Below, one piece after another: positions 6,930 to 44,993 of a stretch of DNA of 64,000 nt. The position numbers were made by a program, and so were the translations under genes. The notes under the pieces were generated by a model that saw only the letters and a list, made by a program, of their open reading frames with translations, was not told where the DNA came from and did no database searches. How positions within the stretch are numbered: the stretch's first letter is position 1; each line of letters begins with the position of its first letter. This DNA is from Flaccisagitta enflata (Eukaryota). The stretch spans positions 40,486,001-40,550,000 of the forward strand of contig OZ231126.1 of NCBI GenBank assembly GCA_965153355.1, given 5' to 3'.

Positions 6930-9741
6930 AGATTGGTTGGAACATAAGAGCCGATGATGAAAAATGGGATAGATTTACCCAAGAATTAAGAAAAAGATGT
7001 GAACGAGCGACCCAAATAATCTCTAACTCAGAAATACCAATAGATGACAAATATAAAAAGTACTTAAATGAAATCGAACGCAGTGCCCTATGTTCTATTG
7101 GGAAAACCACTTTCAAAAATAGACCCAGAGCAAGGACATCAGAAACAGTAAAGAATTTACAAAACAAAAAACGACCACTGAAAGATCAAATTCAAGCTGA
7201 AAAAGATCAGCTTCGACGGGAAATTTTGATCAATGAATACAAAGATATCCAACAAGAAATTCATGACAAAATGAAACGTGAAAAGGTTGAAGAAATAACT
7301 GAAAAATTAGAAAAAATCATGGCAGATGGCAGCAAAAACGCTCTTTGGAATGAAAAACGAAAGATGGAACGTGATCATTCCCTTGATTACCTTGCTATGA
7401 AAAATGAACAAGGGATGTGTCTTTATGACCCTGAAGAGTATAAATCAGAGCATGCAAACTATTTTGAAGGTCTTTACAAGCCAAAAGAATTTGAGTATCA
7501 TCCATACCACACTGAAGTCCTTAAAAAGATCGACGAATACACAAAAGATAGAAATCATGAAGATACCACTTACAATAGAATACCCACTAAACAAGAAATA
7601 GCGGACATCATAAGAAAAAAGAAAAATGGCAAATCAACCCCTGACATAAGAAACGAGATGATTAAAAGAGGAGGAGAACCAATGATTGACATCCTTCACC
7701 CTCTTGTGGTTGAATGGTTTGACACCAAGTATATGGAACCATGGTACAATAACATGTCTGTACAAAGGTAAAGGCGACAAAGAAAAACTGTGCAATCATC
7801 GCGGGATAACAACGTCTTCTTCAATTGGCTCAATTATTGAAACTATGATTGATAACCGCATTACACATTTGGTGGAATTCACTCAAGCACAAGGTGGAGG
7901 AACAAAAGGGGCTGCATGCGCAGACCATTTATTCATTCTCCGTGCTATCATCGATATATCCATTAAAGAAAAACGCTCAACCTTTATAACCTACTATGAC
8001 GTCTCAAAAGCATACGACAATGTAGACAACAACGATCTTCTTGTCACAATGTGGGAAAAAGGTTTGAGAGGCAAGTCGTGGCGAATTCTCAAAAACTTAA
8101 ATTCAAACTTGACAGCATCTATCAAAACCAGATTTGGTCCAACTCGTGACGTTTCCATGGAAATAGGAGGAAAGCAAGGTTCAAGGCTAACAGGGAGAAT
8201 GTTTAGCAAGATGATGGATCTGTTATCAGAAATGTTAAGTGAAACGGATTTAGGATTCAAATTAGATGACGACTTTATCATCAGTGTCCTCCTATGGGTC
8301 GATGATGTCATTTCGTGTACTGAAAGCGAAGAAGACCAAGAAGAAATGCTACTTAAAATCAATGAATTTGCAATTAGACACAAAATAAAATGGGGTCAAA
8401 ATAAGTGCAACATCATGAGAGTTGGTAAGCATAAAAAATCTGAAAGGGAATGGAAATTAGGGGACATGGTCATCCAAGAAACCAAAAAATATAAATATCT
8501 TGGTGACATAGTAACGCCTGATGGCAAAAATACCGAAAATATTCAAAGTTGAGGCACTAAATTACAGTCAACAACAATAAATATAAACACAATAGCCTCT
8601 AGTGAGATCCTCCACCGCATCAAAACTACAGTCCTACTTGATATGCATGAAAAGAAGAGTATCCCTGGCTTCTTAACCAACGCCGAATCTTGGAATCTGA
8701 CCCATAAAGAAGAAAAAGAACTAGAAAAAATAGAGATCCAAGCGGTAAAATACTTGTTTGACTTACCTGTACACATGCCAACGGTTGCCATACTCTACTC
8801 CCTTGGTCTACTCTACACAACCCAACGCATTGACCAAATACAGTTAATATACCTTCACAGACTGCTTCAAAGAGACAACAAAGATCAAACTAAAAATTCC
8901 TTACACACACTAAGAGACAAAAAAGCCGGATGGTTCGAAAGAATATCAAATACTTTACAGAAGTACAACCTCCCAACAGACTTCCAAACCATTGCCTCCA
9001 TACGTCCAAACCGTTGGAAGAATGCAGTCAAACTAGTTGTTGATCAAAAGAATAAGGAGAGATTAAAAGACGATTTGTACAAATGTGAGAATGGAATCAA
9101 TACCTTAAAAACAAAAACTAAGTCCATTCTAGAAAAACTCAACGATCCACTGTACACAAGACAACCTGAACGTGAAATAATAAACACGACAAAAAACGAG
9201 ACCAAAACAATTCTTATAGCCAGATATGGTATGCTACAATGCGGGACTAACTTTAAAGGCACAATAAATCCGACATGTCAAACATGCGACGTCTTAGACA
9301 ACAAAGATCATAGATCAAATTACTGTCCAAAATGGAATACACCCGATGAAATAGAGACAAGAGAATATGTTGACTTTAACTTAATTCATAGTTCGGACAT
9401 TAATGTGATTCGCCCGATAATACAAGAGATAAACCGTTTATGGAATACTAAATGTGCGAATGGATCTATGAACAAATAGTCTTACCTTATGTTTTTCTCC
9501 CGAAATACCCAATGGATTTTAGTTTTAGTTTTAGGCCAATTAATTGACACTCCTTTCGACTGTGTTTTAGCTCTAAAATTTTGGTTATTTATTCATCTAT
9601 GAACACACATACGGACCCACCCTTGGACAAACTAGATTTAGATGTATTTTTCACATGGTACCTTGGTACTGCTCCATAACAATTGTTGTTATAATGTGAT
9701 GAACGCACATATGAGCAATTACAATCAATCAATCAATCAAT
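6930..9741 (+). mobile_element. 5'-truncated non-LTR retrotransposon (LINE, CR1/L2-like), disrupted ORF2 reverse transcriptase
   Basis: RT motifs CLYKGKGDKEKLCNHRGIT, YYDVSKAYDNV, GGKQGSRL, LLWVDDV and KYKYLG, plus a C-terminal CQTC...H...C knuckle. Frameshift near 7715, in-frame TGA at 8550-8552, ORF end at 9479, then a 3' UTR and a (CAAT)n tail at 9722-9741. No endonuclease domain seen. Confidence 0.9.
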
Positions 9742-28403: not shown

Positions 28404-28447
<44 letters not shown>

Positions 28448-28448
<1 letters not shown>

Positions 28449-28906
28449 GTTAAGTTACTATTCAATGTACTGTTAATAATCTGAATTACTTGTTAGACTA
28501 GAAGTTTTCAACTCTTTCCTGAATACTTAGGTAGCATGGAATAGGCCAGGGTTATTACGTTGCAAGCAATGTTCTATTAATAGGTGACAAGCAAGAACCA
28601 ATAGTTAGGTAACAATTTAAACTTACATGTTTATGGAGCATGTGTTGACCCAAGGTAACTTTAGTGGAGGATCCACATACAATGTGATCCTCCCTTTTAT
28701 AGTCAGATATTTTCTACGTAATAAGCTCCACGTATTTAAGAATAACTATTCCAACATGATTCCACGTAGATTAAAGCCACATAAAGTTAGATGTATGTTT
28801 GAGTTAAACATGATACTTTGAACTAGATTAAAGGCGCCTTTGGAAACAAACATAGATGAGAACAGGAATATGTTTCTATCACGTTGCGCACTTTATATTT
28901 GCAACG
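28448..28906 (-). repeat. 3' LTR
   Basis: Matches 44432-44890 except two substitutions seen by eye (GTTCTATT/GTTATATT and AGATGTAT/AGATATAT). Confidence 0.95.
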
Positions 28907-30640: not shown

Positions 30641-32329
30641 ATGAAAGGTGATTATCTCTTTGCTAAGGTCAGGGTTGTGCTATGACGCGCAGCCCTGGCC
30701 GTTTGCCCTTACATTTTTATCACAGGCACAATCCCAACCTCACGACGCTAAGATCATACATGCCTCAACGTCTGCTACAGACGCTGCTCCGAGATGGCCC
30801 TGTCAACCCTGTCGTCGAAAGCCACAAGCCGTCGCAGCTCCGCAGCATCCCCGCGGTTCCTGCCAAAATCTCCAGCCTCCACATCCTGGAAGCCTTATCC
30901 ACATCTCGTATCAATTACGTATCGACACGTCCACCAAAAAAAAACGTCCCAAGCAAAGAATTTCGTACAACGGTACCCAGCCCATCGCTCCTGCCCATCA
31001 CGGCCTCAGCATGGTATGCCTCGTCAAAAGCTATTATCACTTTTTACATCCACACGCGAGTTGTTTTTTCGCGTATCAACAAACCACCGACCGACACATT
31101 TCACCTTTTCTTAATTATAAGAACCTGCTCTATAAGACCATCATGGCATTAGCACATCCTAAGATTAAGAACATCATATTTCACTAGTCGTTATTTATGA
31201 AGGTTCCGAAATATCACGTCCGTACAAAATTGTATCAAACCATCACATCTCTTTTTTTCTTTTAGGACACGCTCTCTTTCGAGGCTCTTGAGGAGCACGG
31301 CTGGGAAAGAAAAGCCTGCTCCCTCGCAGTATCTGCCTTAGGTGAGCATAAACTCATTTGACTCCGTCTGTTTTCCAAGCTCGTTCACTCGCTCATAATA
31401 AAAAAACTCCCATCTACGACTTTTTTTACGGTCGGCGAGAGCCGCTTTTATCGTTAAATTCCACTCTCGTATTTTCTCGTAGGGCATTTAAGTGATTGTT
31501 TACCATCCAAGCCGCTGAATCTGGGCAACTTCATCCAAATCGCCCTCCTCGCCTTTTTGGTTCTCTACGTCATCGCCAAAAACCTCCGCAGAGGTGAGAA
31601 TCCATCTCGGGCAGAAACACCAATTATTATAAGCACCGTGCCTAACCATCCGTTTCATGCTGTTTATAAACCAAATGACCAGACATAACGAACAAATCAA
31701 CAAATGAATGAATAAACGAATGAATGAATGACTAACTGAACGATTGACTGAATCATCGAATGAATGACTGACTAACTGAATGAATGAATGAATCACCGAA
31801 CGAATGAATGACTAATTGAATGACTGAATGAATAACCAACTGAATGAACTAATGAATCACTGAACGAATGAATGATTTAATCACCTCCTTTGCCTGTCCC
31901 CGCCCCCATACAGGTTACAAATGGTGTTTTCGCACCCATAAAGTTTTCGTCTCCGACTGTTTGGATCGTCCATCAACAGATCGAGCCCCATCAACCACCA
32001 ACACCGCCACGGACCTTGCTGTCGTCACGACCACGTTTCACCGTCCATCGATGCAGGATGATGCGTGCCCCGACTACGCCACCATCCATCTACCACCCAA
32101 ACGCAGTACTGGTGAGAAAACCTTCCTTCACTCTTACTCTTTTAACGGCCCCCGCGATCTAACCAACCTATCCTTATTTAGCAGTAAATCCATTATTACA
32201 GTATGCCGTCTATAACAGCCTAACATAACTTCATGCCTACATACTTACTCTTACCCAACCATCCACAATGTAGCCATTGAAGCTCCATCCAGCGTCACCA
32301 CCAATGCTGTTGTCCATCTCCCAGCCTGA
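30641..32329 (+). CDS. Antisense accessory gene B: predicted six-exon single-pass membrane protein, about 250 aa
   Basis: Exons 30641-30667, 30726-31013, 31266-31341, 31483-31593, 31914-32111 and a last exon at 32182-32228 or 32274-32329. All introns are GT-AG with compatible phases and the frame stays open. TM is FIQIALLAFLVLYVIA followed by KNLRRGYKWC. Confidence 0.62.
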
Positions 32330-32586: not shown

Positions 32587-33255
32587 CTAGAACGACCAGA
32601 ACAGAGACCTGTATCCTGCCCCAACTGTGTAGGTCTTCCTATCCGTCCATTTAACAAAATTAATCCCATCAATCACAAAAGTGATCAGTTCTTGGTAGAG
32701 GGCTATCCCCTGTTCATTAAGATGGACATTATCTCCTTCAAACAAACATAATCTGGGCAGGGTCCCCCTGTGGTCCTTCTCGGCCACATAGGTATCAGTG
32801 CACCAATGATGGTGCCAGTAGCCGGCCCTGACCATCAACTCATCATACTCATCCACCACCCTTAAGAACCATTCCCCAGACTTAACCAGCGCCTTTTTAT
32901 CCGGTATTCTAGGCAATATGGGCGACGATATGAAGAGACAGCCGGGATTTTTCTCAGCTGTCTCTTTGACCATTTCAGCGATTTGACCCACCAGCTGTGT
33001 TGGTCTCATACCCTTCACTACATCATTACCACCCACTAGGATTAACAGAGCAGAGTAGGCCCCAGCCCCATATTGCAGCTTCTCCAGGATGACCTTCACA
33101 TGCCTCATTCCTCCTCCTGCCACGGAGTAAACGTTGAACCCATTGCGCTGCATAAAAGGCGCAATTCTTGAGACGTGACTATCTCCAAGACAAAGATAGG
33201 AGTACTTTTCGTCAATCCATCTTGACACCTTTTTTCCATGAATCTTTCTCGGAAC
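32587..33255 (-). CDS. SGNH/GDSL hydrolase in the env position, probably expressed by splicing
   Basis: Blocks LCLGDSH, VAGGG, LVGGNDV and GDNVHLN are all present. No ATG start, but an in-frame phase-0 acceptor TTTAATCAG|GTT opens the exon at 33255. AATAAA on the minus strand near 32361-32366. Confidence 0.85.
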   Translation of the reverse strand, partial: VPRKIHGKKVSRWIDEKYSYLCLGDSHVSRIAPFMQRNGFNVYSVAGGGMRHVKVILEKLQYGAGAYSALLILVGGNDVVKGMRPTQLVGQIAEMVKETAEKNPGCLFISSPILPRIPDKKALVKSGEWFLRVVDEYDELMVRAGYWHHHWCTDTYVAEKDHRGTLPRLCLFEGDNVHLNEQGIALYQELITFVIDGINFVKWTDRKTYTVGAGYRSLFWSF

Positions 33256-33936
33256 CTGATTAAATTAACAAGGATATCATCCCGTCAATCATCAATCAGA
33301 GTTAACCCACCACCTAAATTGTCATAACATTATTCTTAACACGATAAAAACTTATTCTTTCATTTCTTTTTAAAATTACATCATATTCAGTCCATATCTA
33401 CTAATTAAACCTTTTTTTTAGGATTTTATCAAAACTCTTTTCATAAAATTTCAACAAAATTTTATAAAAATACATTTTTCCAAAATTATATCAAAATTTT
33501 ATCAAAATTTTATCAAAACTCATTTTTATAAAAATTTTATCAAAATTCTATCAACATTTTATAAAAATTTTGTTATCAAAAAAATTTTTTTTTTTTTACC
33601 AAATTCTATAAAAATGTACCTTACCAAAGTCATACCAAAACTTTATCAAAATTTCATCAAAATTTTATCAAAACTCTTTCTTTTTTTTATAAAAGTTTTA
33701 TCAAAATTCCATCAACATTTTATAAAACCAGTAAAGTTATATCAAATTTCTCCACCCTCAAATTTCAATAAAATTTGAACCAATTCCTACAAAATTATAT
33801 CTTCACTCCAAGAAATCTAATCAAATTTTGTCAAAATCAATCAAATGACACTTGATGTCATATACTGAAATACCCAACTAAAGTTCCTTCAATCACATGA
33901 CATACTAATACCACCTCAATCAGCTATTGCTGACTA

Positions 33937-36900
33937 CTAATTATTATCTAATTTGTTCATTAATGCTTTTGCATCATCCAATGACAGCCTACTCCGTATC
34001 ATTTGATCTATAGGAAGAAGCTTTTTAGTACCATCTAACACATTTTTGCACAAGTACATACTTGTCCCTACCCGTCTTTCTATTGAGAAACACTCGACCA
34101 CACGTTGCTGTAATTTGGGCGCCATGTTCCTAGAGAATTGCATCCGCTTTCTAAAAACAATTGACCCATGTTTTAGGGCCTCGTTTGGAAAAAGATATGC
34201 CTTACGCTGAAGTAATTGCTTAAAAGTCACATCCTTAATTAACTCATGCATTTTGTTAATCTGCAAAAATGTCTCTTTTGCCCTCCCCCCCCCACCAACA
34301 GGTTCCTCCAATGGGGTCAGTGTGGACAAGAAACGCGGACCTTTACGGAATATCAACTCGTTAGGAGAAAATCCACCCAACGATACACAAGGTGAGGAAT
34401 TTATCAAGAATGTTGCTTTACCTAGAACATCCGACCATTTAGATAGGTAATCTTCCCCATCTAGCAGTCTTAATATCACTATAAGCAGATCTCTAAATTT
34501 CCGCTCCACCAATCCTTGGCTCTCGCTCCTGTGATTGCTCCGGATAATCCCCACCCTCAAACCATCCAACAGCTTTTTATCCACCTTTCTAAAGCTGACG
34601 CAATTTCCATCAATCATTACATATTCAGGCAGACCATTTTCCCCAAAATAATTAGTGAGGGCTTCACAAAGTTCTTCTGCCCCCGTGCTTTTCATCTTTA
34701 TCGTCGTCAGCCCCTTATTGTAGTTATCTACTAAGGCCAGTATATATCTATAAGACTTAGATGCCGGGAGGGGACCTAAATAGTCCAATTGCAACCATCT
34801 GCCAGATTGCGTGGACATCAATGTAGAGTTTTTGCCTTTTATCACCTGTTTGACATTGTATTTAGTACAGGGGACACATAAAGCAATCTGATATCTAGTC
34901 ATATTAAACATTCCTGGCGAATACCACACCTCCCTTAGCTTATCAAACACTTTCTTGGTGTGCATGTGGCCATGCTCAATATGCAAATTATTTATTTTCT
35001 CCTTCAGCCCCTCCTCCCCTACATATATTAAAGGAGATATCACACCCTCGGTTGTCACAAACAGCCGAAATATCACCTTTTGTAGGCTAATTTTAAATAA
35101 TGACAGATGTCTTATTACTGACCACCACCTATTATTGAATCTCAAACTATCGCTTTTATCAGGGATATTTTCCACCCCTTCCTTCCAGCCTCTTATCTTC
35201 CTTCCCATTTCATCATCTTGCCCCTTTAGGATCCCTTCAAGATCCTCATCTTTTACCATGGGTAATTCATAGTCGCTATAAATATCATCGATACTCATCT
35301 CCTCTATCCCTTCCTCTAATTCCGCAGTCGTCAAACGCAAGGACGCATCCGCCACACCCTCAACTGCCCCTTCCTCCTCCTCTACCTCTTCTTTCGCGTC
35401 CTCTACCACCTCCTCCTCCTCTTCCACCGCGTCCTCTCCCGCCTTCTCCTCCGCCTTCTCCTCTTCCTCCGCGTCCTCTACTGCCTTCTCCTCCTCCTTC
35501 GCGTGCTCAACCGCATCTCCCTCCTCCACTGCATTCACCACCGCCTCCTCCTCCTTCTCTTCCTCCTCCGCATCCGACGCCACATCTTCCTTTTCCGCCT
35601 CCATTCCCGCTTCCTCCGCTTTCAAGGGCCATGACGAATGCAGGACTCCCTCGCTGCCCAATATCTCATCTCTCATCCGGAGAACAAAGCAGGTACATGA
35701 GCAGTGATCATCTTTCTCCGCATTATTCCATCCCCCACACTCGCAAGGGGAGCATTTTTCTTTCCTACTTTTCAACCCCTTCAATTCTCTCTCCTCACTT
35801 CTCCTCGTCTTTCTCCTCCTCCTAGCCGCCTTTCTCATTCCCCTTTTACCTTTCTTACTGATATTCAGCCCAACGTGAGGGTCAGCCACAACCCCCACCC
35901 ATTCCTCATTACCTTTCCCACCTCCACCCAACCCTGACATAGCAAGGTGGATTTTTTCTGTCACATATTTGTCAGTGCTATTAATCAATCCCTTCATAGC
36001 CAACAATGTGTGTTTGTGTGTCTGCGCTGTTGTGTGAGCATTTGTATGTGTGACTAAGTGGTTCTCAGGGACATTATCATCCCGCCTTGGAGTTACACTC
36101 GGATTTTTACTAAACCTTGGAGCTACGCTCAAACTAGGACATTGCTCACTAATGACAGGTGCGCCGGGAAGATCCTTCCCCTGTAGGGCTTGCATAGGCC
36201 GCTCCGGCGCCCCACTGCCGCACTGGGCAGTTATGTTTATACTATGGGTCGCCGCTCCCCAGCTTCCCAATGATGGGGGCATGTGAGCTCTGGCCCCATC
36301 ATTGGGAATTGCCCCCGCCGCACAAGGGGCAATACCCAAAGTCAAACCCACATCACTTTTAGGTTTAAATGAGTTTCCCCTTTTCACCCGCCCCTCCAGT
36401 CTGTCGGAGGTCAAGTTCACGAGGTCCCCCCCTTCAAGTTCTAAGGGTTTAATTTCCCCCCCTCCCAATTCCAGTCTGGCGGAATTGGGAGGGGCGGGAC
36501 CCCCCACTCCATCTACCTTGGGTATCTTAGCTAGGGGCCCTTTTTTAGTCTCCATAAAGTACCGGTTTATTACCGGTTTATTAGTTCTCTTTTGTCACGC
36601 GAAAAAAGTTTATCAACCCCCAATTGAATTCCATTTGCATTGAAAATCTTTAAGGACCCTAACGGGTTATATTCGTACGGTAATCTTGCTGCTACGTCCG
36701 ATTTGTCCAATCTTGATAGTATGTCTGCCTGCTCCTGACTGGACGGAACGAATCTTACTTCAATGTTATAGTCGCTTATATAAATAAGCCAGCGAGCAAC
36801 CCGCTCACTGACTATCTCCATGGATACCCAAAAACTAAGGGTCCTGTTATCCACAAAGCATACCGCGGGCACTGAGGTTTGGATATAGCACCTCCATTTA

Positions 36901-39383
36901 CGAAGACAGAGATATAATGACTGAAGCTCAAGCAAACACATTGGGAGCAACGTATCTCTATCTGGTATAGATTTTGCATAATATTGAATCAAATATAACC
37001 TTACAGTTTTAGGGTCCAAACCTTCCTCCCTCACCTCCCTCTCGCTCACCCTCTGAAACTGAGAAAGTAAGCCCCCACAGCCTGTCCTTGAACTGTCACT
37101 CCACAGTACAAAGAACTCCTTAGCTGTGGGGTCCCTAGGGGGCCTCAAACACCCGCTCACTGGACAAAGTAGGATGGACAAGGCCTCACAAAGTTGGGAT
37201 TCATTTTCAGAGCTCCAGGAGAAAACTGCCCCTGCCTTGGCCACCTTCCTTAGCCCATGCATGGGGTCTTTCAAGTTAGCCCTCCCTGCGTACCAACTGA
37301 GAAGGCCTAATATTGACCTCAACTCATCCTTATTCCTTGGGGAGGGGATATTTCTCAAGTCCGTCATCTTATTTGAAGCAATTCTTATCATATTATTATG
37401 TTTCAAAGCATAACCTAAAAAATTTACACACTTCCGTGGAAGTTGAGTCTTTTTAGGACCTATGAGTAGTTTAAAAAAACTAAAAGCAGCCAATAGCCCC
37501 TCCACATTGTCTTTTAGCCCTACCAATGACATAGAATATATCATATAATCGTCAATGTAGGCAACTGTTTCCTTACAATGTGCAGTTACCAACTCAGAGC
37601 AAGCCTGACTCATCTGAGGGGAATTTTTCCCCCCTTGCTGAGGTGTTGTAAAGCGATAAACCCCATCATCCCCCACATAAAAAGCAGTTAAATCTCTAGA
37701 GGAGGCCTGGAGGCCGATTTGGTGAAAAAAATTAGTCATATCATAGGTCATGAAATATTTACCACCCCTACAACACGACTCAAGCACATCATCCATGATG
37801 CGTAATTTGCATGTTACGGTCTTCATGATTTGATTCTGATTTCTTGAATCAAGGCAGAACCTATAAGCCATCTTAGGGCCATCAGGGTAATTCTTTATCT
37901 GGCCTAAAATCAAAGGGTTGCAAATATAGCTAGAAGAGTTATTTTCACATCGTTCTAGTATACCTGCCTCTACCCAATCCTTCACAAACTTCCTTAAGAC
38001 CTCCATCTTCTCAGGGGATAGCCTCCTAAATTTATCAATTCTAGGGCCCGACCCCTCCACTGTCTCAATACTAAATTCTGGTATGTTGGCCCTAGTCCAA
38101 CAACTCCAACTACCATTCCAGAATGTATTTCTATATGCCCAGAATAATTCCTTATATTCCTCGGCATATTTCACTGCCCCTTCCCTACCTAGGTCTTCCT
38201 CCAACTCGTTCACCATTTCATCCCATTTGAACATAGACAAGAACTCTTCTTTATTCTTCCACATCCTGTCATTGTCATTCTTTCTTCTTTCCTCCTCCCT
38301 GTCAATCTTATGTTTCCTTCCTACCTCCCCAATCTCTTTCACCTCCCCTTGTGGGGGTTCAATCACTCCTCCATGCTCATAAAAATGATCCAGCTCAGAA
38401 GGGGTCAATTTTCTCCTTTCTGTACCCCCGCTACCCCCACCATCATTCATCTCCGATTTCAACACTCTATCGCCAGACTGACAGACATCTTCAATCACTT
38501 CATTCAGCCTAACAATACAGATTGACTCACTTTGTGCAGCCGCAAATCCTATGGTTTCTCCCGATCTAATTGTTAAAGGTACCTTTCCCTTATTTACAAC
38601 AATCATTTGTAACCCCCCTTCCTCCACTTTCTCATATACAGTGCTGAGGGGAAACCTGGCCTCCGATTCGAAGCCCACTAACGCCAAGGAACCAGTCAGG
38701 CGCGAAGTCAACTCTACATTAACCAACTCTGCTGCATTTCCAGGTAAAATGTACTCCATTGTAGTTACTACGTGTACATAGTCAGCCCCAGTATTCATCA
38801 TTCTCTTGAGATCTGACCTCGAGTTGCACAGAGAGACAATATGTGACCCTATAGACAGTGTACTGTTTTCATAGTTTACAACTGCCCCTAATTTACCCAA
38901 TGCATCACTCCCCATCAAGACTGGGATATCAGTCTCCACCACATAAGCCAACAAAGTTATTTTTAACTGTTTACCCTCCTTGCTCCTAAACCACACCCTG
39001 AGTACTGTGTAGTCATAGCAACTGATTTTTCTACCACCCACCCCTGTAATATCCTTTGGCTTGGCAAACCTTTTCATAGGCAATCTCAATTGCCTGGCCA
39101 AAGATAACGGTATCAACGATCTATCAGACCCGGAATCTAACTCAAGGGCAAATTTTTCCTTCCCCTGCCCAGCCTCCACCTTCCCCACCAAAAATAGGGG
39201 TTGTGCCGGGCCCTGGTCAAAATTTACCCCCTCCATCTGACCTATATCCCTCAGCTCTTCCTTAGTCAAAATATGCACCTTTTCCACCTCAGTATCCTTC
39301 TCCCCCATGAGTGACTGCTCCTGCCCAACCTTTTTGTCAGCCCTCTGAACATAATCCTGCTCAGTGCCCAAAACTCCGTCTAG
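33937..39383 (-). CDS. pol: Pol polyprotein (PR, dUTPase-like, RT, RNase H, long linker, integrase), split by an 11-bp duplication
   Basis: PR LELDSGSDRSLI; RT RFCLDSR, YDMTNFFHQI, QQGGKNSP, AYIDDYMI; RH WSDSS, LLELQS, FVDNR, QADILSR; INT HIEHGH...CVPC, LQLDYLG, MIDGN, SQGLVER. The ORFs 36570-39371 and 33937-36555 fuse if one TACCGGTTTAT copy (36560-36581) is removed. Confidence 0.95.
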
Positions 39384-40310
39384 TCACTCCACATCGGAGA
39401 AGTCTGAATCTTGAAATGTGAAATCCTTAAAATCATCAGCAATTTTCATAACATTTGTCCGTTTTTCCACCACGCTATCCCTCACCCCTAAGAAAGTGGT
39501 CAAATTTCGTGGGGCTTTCCCACAAATCAGAGAATAGTGGCGGCATACCGAGCTCTTTTTCCCACAGAAGCGACAATGAGTTTTCTTACACTCAGTCACT
39601 CTGTGCTTATCCGAAAAACATTGGAAACATCGGTGATTAACCCCTTTGTCCGTGGCGACCTCAAAATACTTTCTAAGTGGGTCATCAAAGATTTTGTGGC
39701 ATACCTCATCCTCTTCTTGACCTTGATCACCCCCTCCCACCATCAACACTGAGTCCCCAGGTTTCTCCGTCTGTAGATTGTTTGAGATGCTCACAGTCAG
39801 CTCCATTATCTCCTTGAACTCAAGGGCCTCAAGGTTGTGGCGTCGCACAGCTGCCCTTAGGCTAGCTGAGGTCAGTCCGTCTATAAACTTGTTAATCTGT
39901 GGCTTCAGCTCAAACCCCATAAGGACACAAAACCCCTTAAATCGTCTAGCATAGTCACGTATGCTCCCCTTAAGTGGGTAGGACTGTGTAAGCTTATCAA
40001 ATCCAATCCGTAGGGTGGATGTAGGGGCAGGCCAAATTGCAGCAAACAGGTCCTTAAAAAACGTATTTAAGTCCCATTTCCCACTTTCTTTGCATTCATC
40101 GTATATGAAATTTGCTTCCCCCCTCAAACGCTTATCACAATTATGCATGACAACCATAACTTGCGTTTTTTGAGTCTCCTCCCCATAGTACAACATAACT
40201 GCACGGTGAAGCAAAGACTGGGATTCTATGAATTCCGTTATGTCTTGTGTATCAACCAGCTTCACATCAATGATTTTGTTGCTCTCACTAATGATTTTTC
40301 TTACGCTCAT
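39384..40310 (-). CDS. gag: Gag (capsid/nucleocapsid), 308 aa
   Basis: Capsid-CTD-like LTQ...SIRDYARRF...KFIDGL and knuckles CFQCFSDKHRVTEC and CRFC...H...C. In frame with pol. Confidence 0.88.
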   Translation of the reverse strand: MSVRKIISESNKIIDVKLVDTQDITEFIESQSLLHRAVMLYYGEETQKTQVMVVMHNCDKRLRGEANFIYDECKESGKWDLNTFFKDLFAAIWPAPTSTLRIGFDKLTQSYPLKGSIRDYARRFKGFCVLMGFELKPQINKFIDGLTSASLRAAVRRHNLEALEFKEIMELTVSISNNLQTEKPGDSVLMVGGGDQGQEEDEVCHKIFDDPLRKYFEVATDKGVNHRCFQCFSDKHRVTECKKTHCRFCGKKSSVCRHYSLICGKAPRNLTTFLGVRDSVVEKRTNVMKIADDFKDFTFQDSDFSDVE

Positions 40311-43300
40311 TCCCGCAGGAGGACGGTAACGACGTCTGCCATGTCCCTGCCATGTCCCGAGGTCGACGTATCGCTGTAATCGTCGTCTTCATCGACATTT
40401 CGCCTTCCTCCATATCCACGTCGTCCATCATCATCACCACGACGGTCCCCGCCATCGTCCCGGCGTCCATCGTGACGAGGATCGTGTTCATCCTGTCCTC
40501 GGTCGCCGCCTCTTTGACCATCGGCGGCCGCCGCCAGAAATGGCGCTGTCGATCTCACCACGTGGTTTCCCGTTGACGCCATCCCGAAGAGCCGTGAATT
40601 AATATCACCCTGATGCACGCCCGTCGACGCTGTGCCCAGACCCAACGACGCTCTCGACATCATCCCCGTTGTTGGAAGGTCGTGAGACTGTGGCGCCACA
40701 CTTTCTGTTGCCGAAAACTTTATCGCTTCCGCCGCCGGTAACTTCGCCGCAGTCGCCGCCTCAATCGCCGTAAGGCGGCGTTCCGACTCCGCCACCCTCT
40801 GGATCACCTCCTGTTGCGTCTTCAAAGCAGCATCTCTCTCTTTGATAGCTTGATCCCTCTCGGCCTCCACTTCAGCCATCGTCTTCCCATCCGAGCTCAA
40901 CATCGATCCAGCGAACCCGGTAAGCTGCTGCTCTTTGCTGTTCAGTTCAGCTCGGGTCAAAGTCAACTTTGATTCCAAATCTTCCAGCCTGTTAGACCAA
41001 TTAACAATACCGTGACCGTCTTTTTCCCTCCCAGATTCTCGATGCGCGCCCAACATCATTCTTGGAAAGCAGAACAACTCACACCACCGCCCCTCAGGTA
41101 AGATTAGTCACCATCAACAAGCGCCTTTCATGAATGATAGACTGACTGATCGATTGAATGAATGAATGAATGAATGAATGAATGATTGAACGAATGATTG
41201 AATGAATGAATGATTGAATGTATGAATGATTGACTACATGAATGAATGAATGAATGAATGACTGAATAAACAAATGAATGAATGAATAAATGAATGAAAG
41301 AATGAATGAATGAATGACTAAACAAATGAATTATTGCATGAATGACTGAATGAAAGAATGACTACACAAATGAATGAACGAATGAATGAATGACTAAACG
41401 AATGAATGAACTACTGAATGAACCAACGACTGAATGACTGAATTACTGAACGAATCAACGACTGAATGAATGAATGAATGAATAACCGAATGAATGAATG
41501 AATGAACAACTGAATGAACAACCGAATGAATGAATGAATGAATGAATAATTGAATGAATGAATGAATGAATAACTGATTGAATGAATGAAAGAATGAATA
41601 ACCGAATGAATGAATGAATGAATGAATGAATGAATGAATGAATAACCGAATGAACGAATGAATGAATGAATAACCGAATGAACGAATGAATGAATGAATG
41701 AATGAACAACCGAATGAACAACCGAATGAATGAATGAATGAATGAATGAATGAATAACCGAATGAATGAATGAATTAATAACCAAATGAATGAATGAAAG
41801 AATGAACAACCGAATGAATGAATGAATGAATGAATGAATGAATGAATGAATGAATGAATGAATGAATGAATGAATAACCGAATATGTGCCAACTTTCATT
41901 ACACAGAATTGCGAACGCAACGACGAGAGAAAATAACATCCGACGGACACACATGCGGCGAATCAATATCCGACATGCCCTAAAAATCTCCGCAAAACGA
42001 AAATAGAGAAAAAGACGACCGGACACTTTAGGTGGCGAGCGCATGCCGAGGACGAAATTGGATAACCAAACGGAGAAAAACAGGTGCGGAGAAATCAGTG
42101 TGAATGATACGAGTTGGTACATGATGAGTTATAGGAAACCCAAAGAAACTTATCAAGTCGCGATACAGCCTAGTTTGCAATAGCTACCGTTAAAAATTTT
42201 ACTAACACTTTCCCACTCTTACCAACTTATATCAATTTAACAACATCTAACACAATTTATAACAAATCTTATCAAAATTCCTAAAATTCTACCAAACCCT
42301 AACAAATTTAATAATTCCTAACAAATCTCATCAAATTTTGAATTTTGGCAGACTTCAACACATTCACACAAATATCATCGCAATTAATATAATATTAAAT
42401 TTCATTTATTTTATTTTACCAACTGTATAAGTTCTATTAACCTTCAATAGCTTTTATTAAATCTTATCAAATCTACACCATTTTAACAAACACTATTCAA
42501 ATCTATCAATTTTACTAAAAATATCAACAATTTTTAACAAATATCAACAATTTCTAATAACTTTTACCAAACTTTAGTAAATTTTAGTAAATTTCAACCA
42601 AAATAAAATTTTACAAAATTTTAACAACTTTCTCAGCAAAATTAACAAACTTTAACAACTTTCAGCAAATTTTAGCATATTTAACAAATTTAACAATTTT
42701 AACAAATTTTTAACAAAATTTTAACAAATTTAAACAAATTTTAGCAGATTTTAGCAGATTTTAGCAGATTTTATCAGATTTTATCAGATTTTAGCAAATT
42801 TAACCAATTTAACAAATTTTACAAAATTTCAACAATTTCTTAACAAATTTTAACAAACTGTAACAAATTTTAGCAAATTTAACATATTTAACATATTTAA
42901 CCAAGTTTAATCAATTCTAACTAATTCTCACAAAATTTAACAAAATTTTAACAAATTTTAACAAATTTTAACAAATTTTAACAAATTTTAACAGAATTTA
43001 ACAAAATTTTACCAGAGTTTAACATACTTCCACCAAATTTTATTTTGATCTAATTTAAGTTATTTGATCATTTCATATCTTATAACATTTTATCATATCA
43101 TTATCTTTCTGATCACACGCCTTTTCTTGTTTTCAACCTACATAGGTCCGATACTCTCCCCACGATGCCAGCCTACTGACCTATCATCCATCAACACAAC
43201 ATACGTGTCCCATCCACAGGTATCTACCTTTCTCTAGCAGCTGCCAGATCAGTACTCAATGTTTGATTCCGTAAACGAAGGTCTTCCTTCTCAGCTTCTA

Positions 43301-43969
43301 TCCTCTGATTAAGTTGAAACAAATTGTCGCGTTCAGTAGTAGTGTCTTGAAGCTTGCTTTCCAATTCAACGTCCACCTCCGGAGAAGTCACATGAAGTGG
43401 CAAAGAATAGTTTTCCGGACAATCCGGCACGCCGCAAGATTTCAGATATGCTGTGGATGCCCCAATCCGGTCCAAGTAATCCTTCTTTTGGCGTATCCCT
43501 TCTCTGTATAACAATTAGAATTGATCTGTCATTACAGGCCCTTGGGAAGAACAATGCCCGAATCTACCATCAAGATGACCACAAGAGACGAACATCCCAT
43601 CGTTTCCCACCCCATCGTTTCCCACCCCTTCGCGTTCCACACGAGTATGGATCAACAACCACATCGGACAATATGAAGACCAAATAAGACAATGTCAAGA
43701 TCTATTACCATCTGTGTGATATACCTTAGATTCTCGTTCTTTTGCCCCCTTCTTCCACAGCCAAATCGTCTGTAGACTTGCCCACCGACAGCCTCTTTGA
43801 TTTTATGACATTCATCAAGAGAAGATAGGTAGCAAACGCTACAGAATGTCTGTAGCAACTCCACGAACTTTACCAATGCCCCGAAAGTGCGTTTCGCGTT
43901 CAATACTTCCTGATTCAATTGATTGTCTTGTTCTATGAGTTCTTTCTCAGTCTCCCTGTTAACAACCAT
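40307..43969 (-). CDS. ORF1: predicted three-exon coiled-coil protein, about 400 aa, upstream of gag
   Basis: Exons 43969-43725, 43503-43228 and 40988-40307. Both introns are phase 2 (AAG|GTATAT...TACAG and AAG|GTAGAT...CTAACAG). The join gives a continuous coiled-coil-like run, LAAARERLEDLESKLTLTRAELNSKEQQL, and a D/R/G-rich tail. Confidence 0.68.
41130..41882. repeat. (GAAT)n microsatellite inside the LTR element (within predicted ORF1 intron 2)
   Basis: Visible directly; a shorter (GAAT)n at about 31700-31875 lies in predicted intron 4 of gene B. Confidence 0.95.
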
Positions 43970-44419
43970 ATTGATACGAATTTACAATCTATCCTCCTAT
44001 TTATGTACTGTCAGTCCGTCTGTCATATGTATGTTAATTTATCATTTACTAAAAATATGTATACTTTCTATCTTTTATAAGAACCTGTTAAGAACATCAC
44101 GCTTTTACTCAATTTAAACCAATAACACATCACTCCTCCACCAATTACCTAAAAGACGTGATGGTCTCAACGTCCTCAAAAACATAAAAAGTGTATCATA
44201 TAGTCCCGCACAATAGAGCACCGACCAACACATCCCTGTGACACAGCCGGTGACTTGGCCTACCCACCCGCTGTGTCACCGGGACATCCATCATCCAATA
44301 CCGACAAAAGACGGAGACTTACAGTAGATACAAACACCCTACTCGATTTTCAATGCAAATGAAGCCCAAAAATTATTCCCCCCCTCCTGATCCCCACATT
44401 GCCCACAACGCGAAATGAC

Positions 44420-44431
44420 CGCTGCTAACCA
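44420..44431 (-). promoter_or_regulatory. Primer binding site, initiator-Met tRNA-like
   Basis: TGGTTAGCAGCG directly follows the LTR end ...TAACA. It matches the complement of an iMet tRNA 3' end CGCUGCUACCA with one extra base. Confidence 0.7.
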
Positions 44432-44890
44432 TGTTAAGTTACTATTCAATGTACTGTTAATAATCTGAATTACTTGTTAGACTAGAAGTTTTCAACTCTT
44501 TCCTGAATACTTAGGTAGCATGGAATAGGCCAGGGTTATTACGTTGCAAGCAATGTTATATTAATAGGTGACAAGCAAGAACCAATAGTTAGGTAACAAT
44601 TTAAACTTACATGTTTATGGAGCATGTGTTGACCCAAGGTAACTTTAGTGGAGGATCCACATACAATGTGATCCTCCCTTTTATAGTCAGATATTTTCTA
44701 CGTAATAAGCTCCACGTATTTAAGAATAACTATTCCAACATGATTCCACGTAGATTAAAGCCACATAAAGTTAGATATATGTTTGAGTTAAACATGATAC
44801 TTTGAACTAGATTAAAGGCGCCTTTGGAAACAAACATAGATGAGAACAGGAATATGTTTCTATCACGTTGCGCACTTTATATTTGCAACG
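44432..44890 (-). repeat. 5' LTR
   Basis: Direct repeat of 28448-28906; TATAAAA on the minus strand near 44680; followed by the PBS. Confidence 0.95.
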
Positions 44891-44897
44891 TGTGGGT

Positions 44898-44947
<50 letters not shown>

Positions 44948-44951
44948 GCGT

Positions 44952-44993
<42 letters not shown>

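Follow-up and report, generated by a model that had tools for sequence, protein, structure and literature searches.

Retroelements are copied through RNA, so introns on their sense strand should be lost unless the RNA that is packaged is controlled. Few long terminal repeat (LTR) retrotransposons keep an intron in their own coding sequence, and the plant Ogre elements are the one such case found in the literature. Here we describe a 16.4-kb Ty3/gypsy-like LTR retrotransposon on the minus strand of a 64,000-nucleotide (nt) stretch of DNA from Flaccisagitta enflata (assembly GCA_965153355.1, contig OZ231126.1, positions 40,486,001 to 40,550,000), which is called the window below. The locus of interest is the 5' third of the element, where three short open reading frames (ORFs) probably form the front part of a gag gene that two retained introns interrupt, with spliced RNA serving for translation and unspliced RNA for copying.

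The element resembles Ogre of legumes (Ty3/gypsy, Tat clade) in being a large Ty3/gypsy element with extra coding capacity. In contrast to Ogre, both introns here fall within the 5' part of gag, and splicing would be required for Gag itself; between gag and pol there is only an in-frame UGA, which is not the Ogre arrangement. Ogre is a plant clade, whereas the present host is a marine eukaryote and the pol product is 24-25% identical to the nearest named proteins; splicing was experimentally shown for Ogre and has comparative support here. Cer1 of C. elegans (Ty3/gypsy; CERV protein) is reported to have a long Gag with a leucine zipper in the N-terminal part, and conventional splice sites in the gag region, which the genomic RNA retains and which also serve to make a spliced mRNA of five exons (PMC10309623). 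In that account Cer1 Gag and Pol come from unspliced RNA and splicing yields an accessory protein, whereas the gag frame described here is discontinuous on unspliced RNA. For the Ty1/copia elements EVD and BARE and for retroviruses, splicing is reported to divide the roles of translated and packaged RNA (PMC5580714; PMC3735527): their unspliced RNA encodes Gag-Pol and splicing gives a Gag-only or env mRNA. The logic proposed here is the inverse, since the spliced RNA would be the Gag/Gag-Pol mRNA. Penelope-like elements are known for spliceosomal introns kept in their copies (PMC4209133; PMC6431247), but they belong to another class, with a GIY-YIG endonuclease or a terminal location and without LTR, gag or integrase.

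Our literature search gave no animal or marine LTR element with gag itself split by introns, which is not proof that none is in print. Because no LTR element with introns inside gag was found, we judge the arrangement to be new; it would be a further form of what plant Ogre elements show. If splicing is confirmed, the element would offer a natural system for how a retroelement separates translated from packaged RNA, and the role of its intronic satellite arrays in that separation could be tested.

A reading frame in three pieces

Coordinates of the element are given on the minus strand throughout, and positions are those of the window. A preliminary description had joined three short ORFs through two phase-2 introns into about 400 amino acids (aa), and its coordinates proved exact: the three pieces, joined by script, give 1203 nt, which is 400 codons and one terminal stop, without an internal stop. 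The joined frame starts with the ATG at 43969 and ends with the TGA at 40309-40307. The first gap (43724-43504) has the donor ...CTAAG/GTATAT at 43725/43724 and the acceptor ...TTATACAG/AG at 43504/43503; the second gap (43227-40989) has the donor ...GAAAG/GTAGAT at 43228/43227 and the acceptor ...GGTCTAACAG/GC at 40989/40988 (slashes within sequences mark the predicted boundaries). Both junctions are of phase 2, with the contexts ...QKNENLREGIRQK... and ...LAAARERLEDLES... after joining. Both gaps thus have the GT..AG ends and the frame-compatible exons of spliceosomal introns. Alone these features prove nothing, because phase-fitting GT/AG pairs arise easily by chance; the part of the case for introns that goes beyond chance is the evidence from relatives and from variation among copies. 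The predicted features of the split frame are as follows.

43725 to 43969, minus strand: exon 1 (ATG, 81 codons and 2 nt), with C-x2-C-x8-H...C residues; homologs P0014-P0029
43504 to 43724, minus strand: intron 1, 221 nt, GT..AG, with a 15-nt tandem repeat inside
43228 to 43503, minus strand: exon 2, 276 nt, symmetric, phase 2 on both sides; ATG-less open frame with a coiled-coil-like C-terminal half
40989 to 43227, minus strand: intron 2, 2239 nt, GT..AG; donor GTAG gives an in-frame TAG when unspliced
40310 to 40988, minus strand: part of exon 3 before the frame break, encoding the N-terminal extension of Gag, a coiled coil followed by a disordered region rich in Arg, Gly and Asp
42526 to 43040, no strand: AT-rich minisatellite inside intron 2, unit of about 10 nt (Tandem Repeats Finder, period-10/20/119 arrays)
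41130 to 41875, no strand: (GAAT)n-type array inside intron 2, period 4, 186.5 copies (Tandem Repeats Finder)

The two low-complexity tracts lie within intron 2, as had been described. The unique 650 nt of this intron folded no better than shuffled sequences (z = -0.09). The coiled-coil-like sequence said to continue across the second junction was also found: by a heptad score of our own making rather than a published coiled-coil program, the peak of 0.68 lies at residues 157-184 and straddles junction 2 (residue 174), against 0.65 for the 95th percentile of maxima in 200 shuffles. One heptad register runs unbroken from residue 149 to 204 across that junction.

Conservation of exon 1 and the first donor

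A search with exon 1 returned two clusters of metagenome ORFs, one with three members of the window's family (99-100% identical) and one with 13 members of a second family; the window and the 16 database ORFs make an alignment of 17 rows. The residues L-R-Y, encoded by the last exon codon and the donor (CTA AG/G TAT), are invariant in all 17. Up to the donor the window and the second family are identical at 53 of 81 positions, and after it at 2 of 20. Within the second family, 2 of 82 columns before the donor are variable vs. 9 of 20 after it (Fisher p = 3e-6). The donor of intron 1 is therefore a boundary with constraint on the exon side only, as an exon-intron boundary should be, and its position is supported by conservation in the second family. 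The start Met stands at a common column in 4/4 rows of the window's family and 8/13 rows of the second; in the other five second-family rows that column is Leu, and an in-frame ATG lies ten codons before it. P0017, which belongs to the window's family, has Trp in place of the intron 1 stop and lacks five residues at the 15-nt repeat.

The 15-nt tandem repeat of intron 1 (43596-43632) varies in copy number, with one unit missing in an X1 contig and in P0017. In exon 1 (43780-43860, minus strand), C-x2-C-x8-H and a later Cys are invariant in the 17 aligned sequences; judged by this pattern, they may form a small zinc-binding motif at the N-terminus of Gag.

Constraint on exons 1 and 2 among DNA copies

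DNA contigs from three runs (X1, X2 and X3) were compared over the repeat-free stretch 43045-44890, and the counts given here are from fully listed contigs. The DNA run of organism A contained 0.76 of the sampled words, with smaller shares in marine metagenome runs and in organism B. The 54 X1 contig pieces on the stretch fall into likeness bands of 17, 30 and 7, which indicates several diverged copies. An X1 contig that spans 43155-44086 has no substitution in 521 exon nt and eight in 411 flanking nt (p = 0.0015), and the X3 contigs have four in 470 exon nt and seven in 426 flanking nt. Pooled, X1 and X3 give 4/991 vs. 15/837 (p = 0.004), a comparison in which some differences are common to several runs and so not independent. 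All four exon changes, among them the three in exon 2, are synonymous third-position changes in the predicted frames, for which the chance is 0.002, or 0.016 if all are transitions. The ten listed insertions or deletions are all outside the exons, and one X1 contig lacks 15 nt of the intron 1 repeat. Judged by the substitutions among copies, exons 1 and 2 were shown to be under purifying selection relative to their flanks.

The open frame of exon 2 has no ATG and opens only 210 nt downstream of the exon 1 donor, so frameshifting cannot link exon 1 and exon 2. Its codon-usage score per codon (+0.20) is the highest of 29 untrained sense-strand ORFs of at least 50 codons in the element, and compares with +0.14 for gag, +0.22 for pol and +0.16 for integrase, which were the training set; exon 1, taken alone, scored +0.12. 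The ESM Atlas gave, for exon 2, unnamed clusters at 0.90-0.91 and coiled-coil families below 0.9, which are leads only. That the pieces behave as coding exons is supported at the level of sequence comparison.

Intron 2 and a possible internal start of Gag

For the second intron the evidence is thinner than for the first. Similarity to the family of P0005, a database relative of exon 3 and gag described below, starts at the predicted acceptor (...VNWSN-R/LEDLES in the window vs. ...IITIF-R/VEELES), and upstream of this boundary about three of ten residues are identical. The residues I-I-T-I-F-R would fit encoding by a T-rich tract followed by AG. If intron 2 is left unspliced, the donor GTAG gives an immediate in-frame stop. 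An alternative acceptor near 41061, which the preliminary description had allowed for, would keep the frame, but at the cost of 24 inserted residues that are not conserved, include Gly and Pro and interrupt the heptad register.

The boundary of intron 2 could also be that between two genes. Exons 1 and 2, with intron 1 spliced, would then encode a 174-aa accessory coiled-coil protein, and Gag would start at an ATG in the last 75 nt of what is taken here as intron 2, on RNA from an internal promoter in the AT-rich DNA or by internal ribosome entry. The TAG within GTAG puts an in-frame stop exactly at the second donor, in-frame ATGs precede the homology boundary by 25 codons in the window and by 11-14 codons in six of six rows of the P0005 family, and Cer1 has spliced accessory proteins that share gag exons (PMC10309623). 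But the stretch from ATG to boundary is conserved neither in length nor in sequence, and the ATG differs in position even within the P0005 family (MATIGY in two rows, MGY in four). The heptad register that runs unbroken from exon 2 into exon 3 and the phase 2 of both gaps likewise argue for joined exons, and no evidence for an internal promoter was found. Scanning to an internal start is implausible, since a ribosome on unspliced RNA would meet 40 ATGs between 43966 and the nearest internal in-frame ATG (41059). We consider two genes unlikely.

The upstream frame as the N-terminal region of gag

The preliminary description had treated the joined frame as a separate gene, "ORF1", upstream of gag. 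The exon-3 frame found nothing among proteins of 146-466 aa, and its fused relatives are longer. A search of 1.84 billion protein representatives with no length limit gave two hits. One is P0005 (565 aa), which is 36% identical to exon 3 over residues 5-158 (E 6e-16); the HMMER match of the exon-3 query covers query residues 2-214. In one frame with that match, residues 250-565 of P0005 are 63% identical to the window gag (E 4e-152). The 90% cluster of P0005 has seven members: a 254-aa fragment and six ORFs of 562-565 aa, in all six of which the exon-3 region and gag form a single continuous frame. The features at and downstream of the split are as follows.

39387 to 40310, minus strand: gag body with a capsid-like part and a knuckle of the form CX2CX4HX4C; matches P0005 over 316 aa at 63% identity, E 4e-152
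40336 to 40358, minus strand: perfect 11-nt tandem duplication, at the switch from the "ORF1" frame to the gag frame
36560 to 36583, minus strand: second perfect 11-nt tandem duplication, where the reverse transcriptase (RT)-RNase H frame stops and the integrase frame opens

The alignment of the upstream frame ends at residue 247 of P0005 and that of the gag frame resumes at residue 250. Similarity in the gag frame extends upstream of the window gag Met, which aligns to Asn in the relatives; the gag ATG is not conserved. Besides the low-complexity arrays and an acidic repeat in pol, the two 11-nt duplications are the only perfect tandem duplications with units of 9-14 nt in the element. Judged by its frames, this copy is defective, with gag and pol each broken at an 11-nt duplication. 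The upstream frame looked separate, with an end at an ATGA overlap with gag, because the gag frame breaks at the duplication. On the alignments with relatives, "ORF1" is the N-terminal region of gag, and the separate gene is an artefact of a broken copy. The status of exon 3 as coding sequence comes from homology and not from codon usage. Two breaks of like kind and length fall within this one young copy. Programmed frameshifting between the upstream frame and the gag frame was also considered and rejected, as inspection of the overlap by eye revealed no slippery heptamer.

A literal ORF1, a separate spliced gene that ends at 40307 with gag started independently at the overlapping ATGA (40310), is what the window itself displays, an upstream-frame TGA that overlaps the gag ATG. 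Set against it are the continuous frame of all six full-length relatives, the Asn at the gag Met, the gag-frame similarity that continues upstream of it, and a frame change that falls on a perfect duplication of a kind which also breaks pol and has no further examples outside low-complexity DNA and the acidic repeat. We regard a literal ORF1 as very improbable. For annotation the case is a warning: because this copy, though young, is broken, the 5' part of gag passed for an additional gene.

Exact look-ups of the window gag, two versions of the upstream frame and the SGNH hydrolase ORF described below found none of them in the protein collection. DNA of the relatives was not found in JGI metagenome contigs (searched with exon 3 and the gag alignment), IMG/VR or GTDB genomes.

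Retention of the introns

Joints of copies without intron 1 were absent from the X1, X2 and X3 contigs, which drop rare variants, so that joint-free contigs show the intron-bearing form to be present and not other forms to be absent. In all 16 database ORFs the exon 1 frame continues into intron 1. Both families, whose Gag proteins are about 35% different, are propagated with these interruptions in place. Since every DNA copy seen retains the introns, the RNA that is copied must be unspliced. A search of sequencing runs gave no RNA run that contains the sequence. An RNA run (X10, from the same study as the best DNA run) had none of 12.16 million sampled reads on 43045-44890 and is no test of splicing; the comparison was limited to that stretch, and the 43228/40988 joint is outside its reach.

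That the upstream ORFs are relics, left in a dead lineage whose 5' gag region was lost to the insertion or expansion of low-complexity DNA, with nothing spliced, would fit the two breaks in this copy, the ease of finding phase-fitting GT/AG pairs and an RNA run without reads (though that is no test), but we think it scarcely credible in view of an interruption common to two families, a young element with several diverged copies, and purifying selection on exons 1 and 2 as compared with the adjacent DNA.

A model for expression of the split gag

In the reading that we favour, full-length RNA from the 5' LTR would keep both introns and be the form that is reverse-transcribed. Doubly spliced RNA would join exon 1 (with the ATG at 43969), exon 2 and exon 3 and serve as the mRNA for a long Gag of roughly 700 aa. 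The N-terminal domain of this Gag, which is conserved, would be followed by a coiled coil, a disordered linker rich in Arg, Gly and Asp, a capsid-like domain and a CCHC knuckle. Pol would be made by read-through of the in-frame UGA-CUAG after gag. In this copy, both the gag and the pol frame are broken at the perfect 11-nt tandem duplications. Of the retrovirus-like control suggested in the preliminary description, the retention of introns and the unspliced state of the copied RNA stood, on all DNA copies seen; that spliced RNA is translated is a prediction from gene structure.

The sequence UGA CUA G at 39386-39380 leaves gag and pol in one frame, and seven of seven related ORFs stop at the same place, all with the end ...DFSDVE of the window gag. 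Gag-Pol synthesis thus looks like stop-codon read-through of the gammaretrovirus kind, with one stop in a leaky context, rather than frameshifting.

Several points weigh against the split-gag reading. The support for splicing is comparative, with no junction read obtained, and the acceptor of intron 2 is placed by protein boundaries only. The in-frame ATGs 11 to 25 codons upstream of that boundary, present in both families, make an internal start possible. Exon 3 has a codon-usage score of -0.08 to -0.10, which is not coding-like, and the conservation of exon 2 rests on three synonymous changes and codon usage. Nineteen contig differences are unlisted, of which up to four in X2 could fall in exons. 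Neither donor has G at position +5. The 462-nt leader has 11 ATGs, which is awkward for cap-dependent initiation and scanning to 43969. A consensus GTAAGT is present at 44610 in the 5' LTR, some 75 nt past the TATAAA (44685), and may be a leader donor, use of which could remove some of the 11 upstream ATGs.

A more far-reaching form of the same model is a lineage of obligate splicing, in which Gag and Gag-Pol would come only from doubly spliced mRNA and the intron-bearing RNA would be solely a template, so that messenger and genomic RNA would be physically different molecules. The satellite-like arrays of intron 2, 1.3 kb in total, would mark this intron-bearing RNA for export or packaging, or slow its splicing. 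Reverse transcription would have passed the introns on in two families whose Gag proteins differ at about a third of their residues. We offer this form, with its proposals on arrays and inheritance, as a speculative extension that is rather unlikely to hold in full.

Anatomy of the element

The host element of the three ORFs is bounded by a pair of LTRs in direct orientation with two mismatches in 459 nt. The element is young, judged by this LTR likeness of 99.6%. Its remaining parts are as follows.

44432 to 44890, minus strand: 5' LTR in element orientation, matching 28448-28906; TATAAA at 44685, GTAAGT at 44610
28448 to 28906, minus strand: 3' LTR, matching 44432-44890
43970 to 44431, minus strand: leader, 462 nt; TGG like that of a primer-binding site directly after the LTR; 11 upstream ATGs with short upstream ORFs
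39384 to 39386, minus strand: in-frame UGA that separates gag from pol, followed by CUAG; the pol frame is open immediately after the stop
36573 to 39383, minus strand: pol with protease, RT and RNase H (Pfam); 66% identity to P0012
33940 to 36594, minus strand: second pol frame, a 486-aa linker and then integrase (Pfam); offset from RT-RNase H at the 11-nt tandem duplication 36560-36583

Pfam places Asp_protease_2 at residues 74-160 of the pol frame, RVT_1 at 513-659 (5.5e-16) and RT_RNaseH at 756-872, and Integrase_H2C2 (1.9e-5) in the next frame downstream; protease, RT, RNase H and integrase thus stand in the Ty3/gypsy order. At E 0.01, Pfam gave no family for exons 1 to 3 and no gag family for the gag frame, in which the CX2CX4HX4C knuckle CFQCFSDKHRVTEC is invariant in 8/8 aligned rows. 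The nearest database pol sequences are ENA metagenome ORFs (62-66% identical), and among the nearest named proteins one at 24% is from an arachnid genome. P0012, the pol relative, ends before the break between the pol and integrase frames and is uninformative on it.

In element orientation the LTRs have the termini CG..CA, vs. the TG..CA expected of Ty3/gypsy, for which the expected target duplication is 4-6 bp. The element is inserted within a (TG)n microsatellite (28420-28447 and 44891-44960), where a 3-bp duplication (TGT) fits and one of 4 or 5 bp does not fit exactly; the (TG)n flanks make the length of the duplication uncertain. Troyka elements share aquatic hosts and an LTR that starts with CG, and their duplication is 3 bp, the length that best fits the ambiguous flanks here (PMC12440569). 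They have CG..CG termini, a CX2CX8-10HX4C knuckle and an internal part of at most 7.7 kb, in contrast to CG..CA, CX2CX4HX4C and 15.5 kb in the present element. Membership in Troyka was rejected by the second terminus and the knuckle spacing, the duplication length being ambiguous in (TG)n.

The 3' region and other features of the window

Between RNase H and integrase, an open stretch of 486 aa (35101-36558, minus strand) contains an acidic Glu/Ala/Val repeat; the stretch has coding-like codon usage (+0.13) and no Pfam match. An SGNH/GDSL hydrolase ORF follows pol at 32590-33264 on the minus strand (Pfam Lipase_GDSL_2, 9e-9). The GDS motif precedes the first Met, and an acceptor-like TTAATTTAATCAG/G stands three codons after the point where the frame opens, so this ORF, too, probably depends on a splice to a start farther upstream; the donors of exons 1 and 2, being of phase 2, are out of frame with it. 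In bdelloid rotifers, the Vesta LTR elements have a GDSL/SGNH esterase ORF3 after pol that is reported to be expressed from spliced messages, as is usual for ORF3s (PMC5408684); the GDSL ORF at 33264-32590 is a likeness of the 3' region only and implies no kinship. The array pair of intron 2 recurs after pol in the same order, first AT-rich (unit of about 11 nt) and then (GAAT)n, at 33423-33727 and 31703-31875, and flanks the SGNH ORF. Between intron 2 and the 3' region the arrays alone match, and the unique DNA between arrays does not.

No second copy of the element and no tRNA gene were found in the window, and Rfam gave no match over the element. The window also contains a second, unrelated retroelement, with an RT ORF at 7686-8549 on the plus strand (Pfam RVT_1, 2.6e-15) and long open frames alongside.

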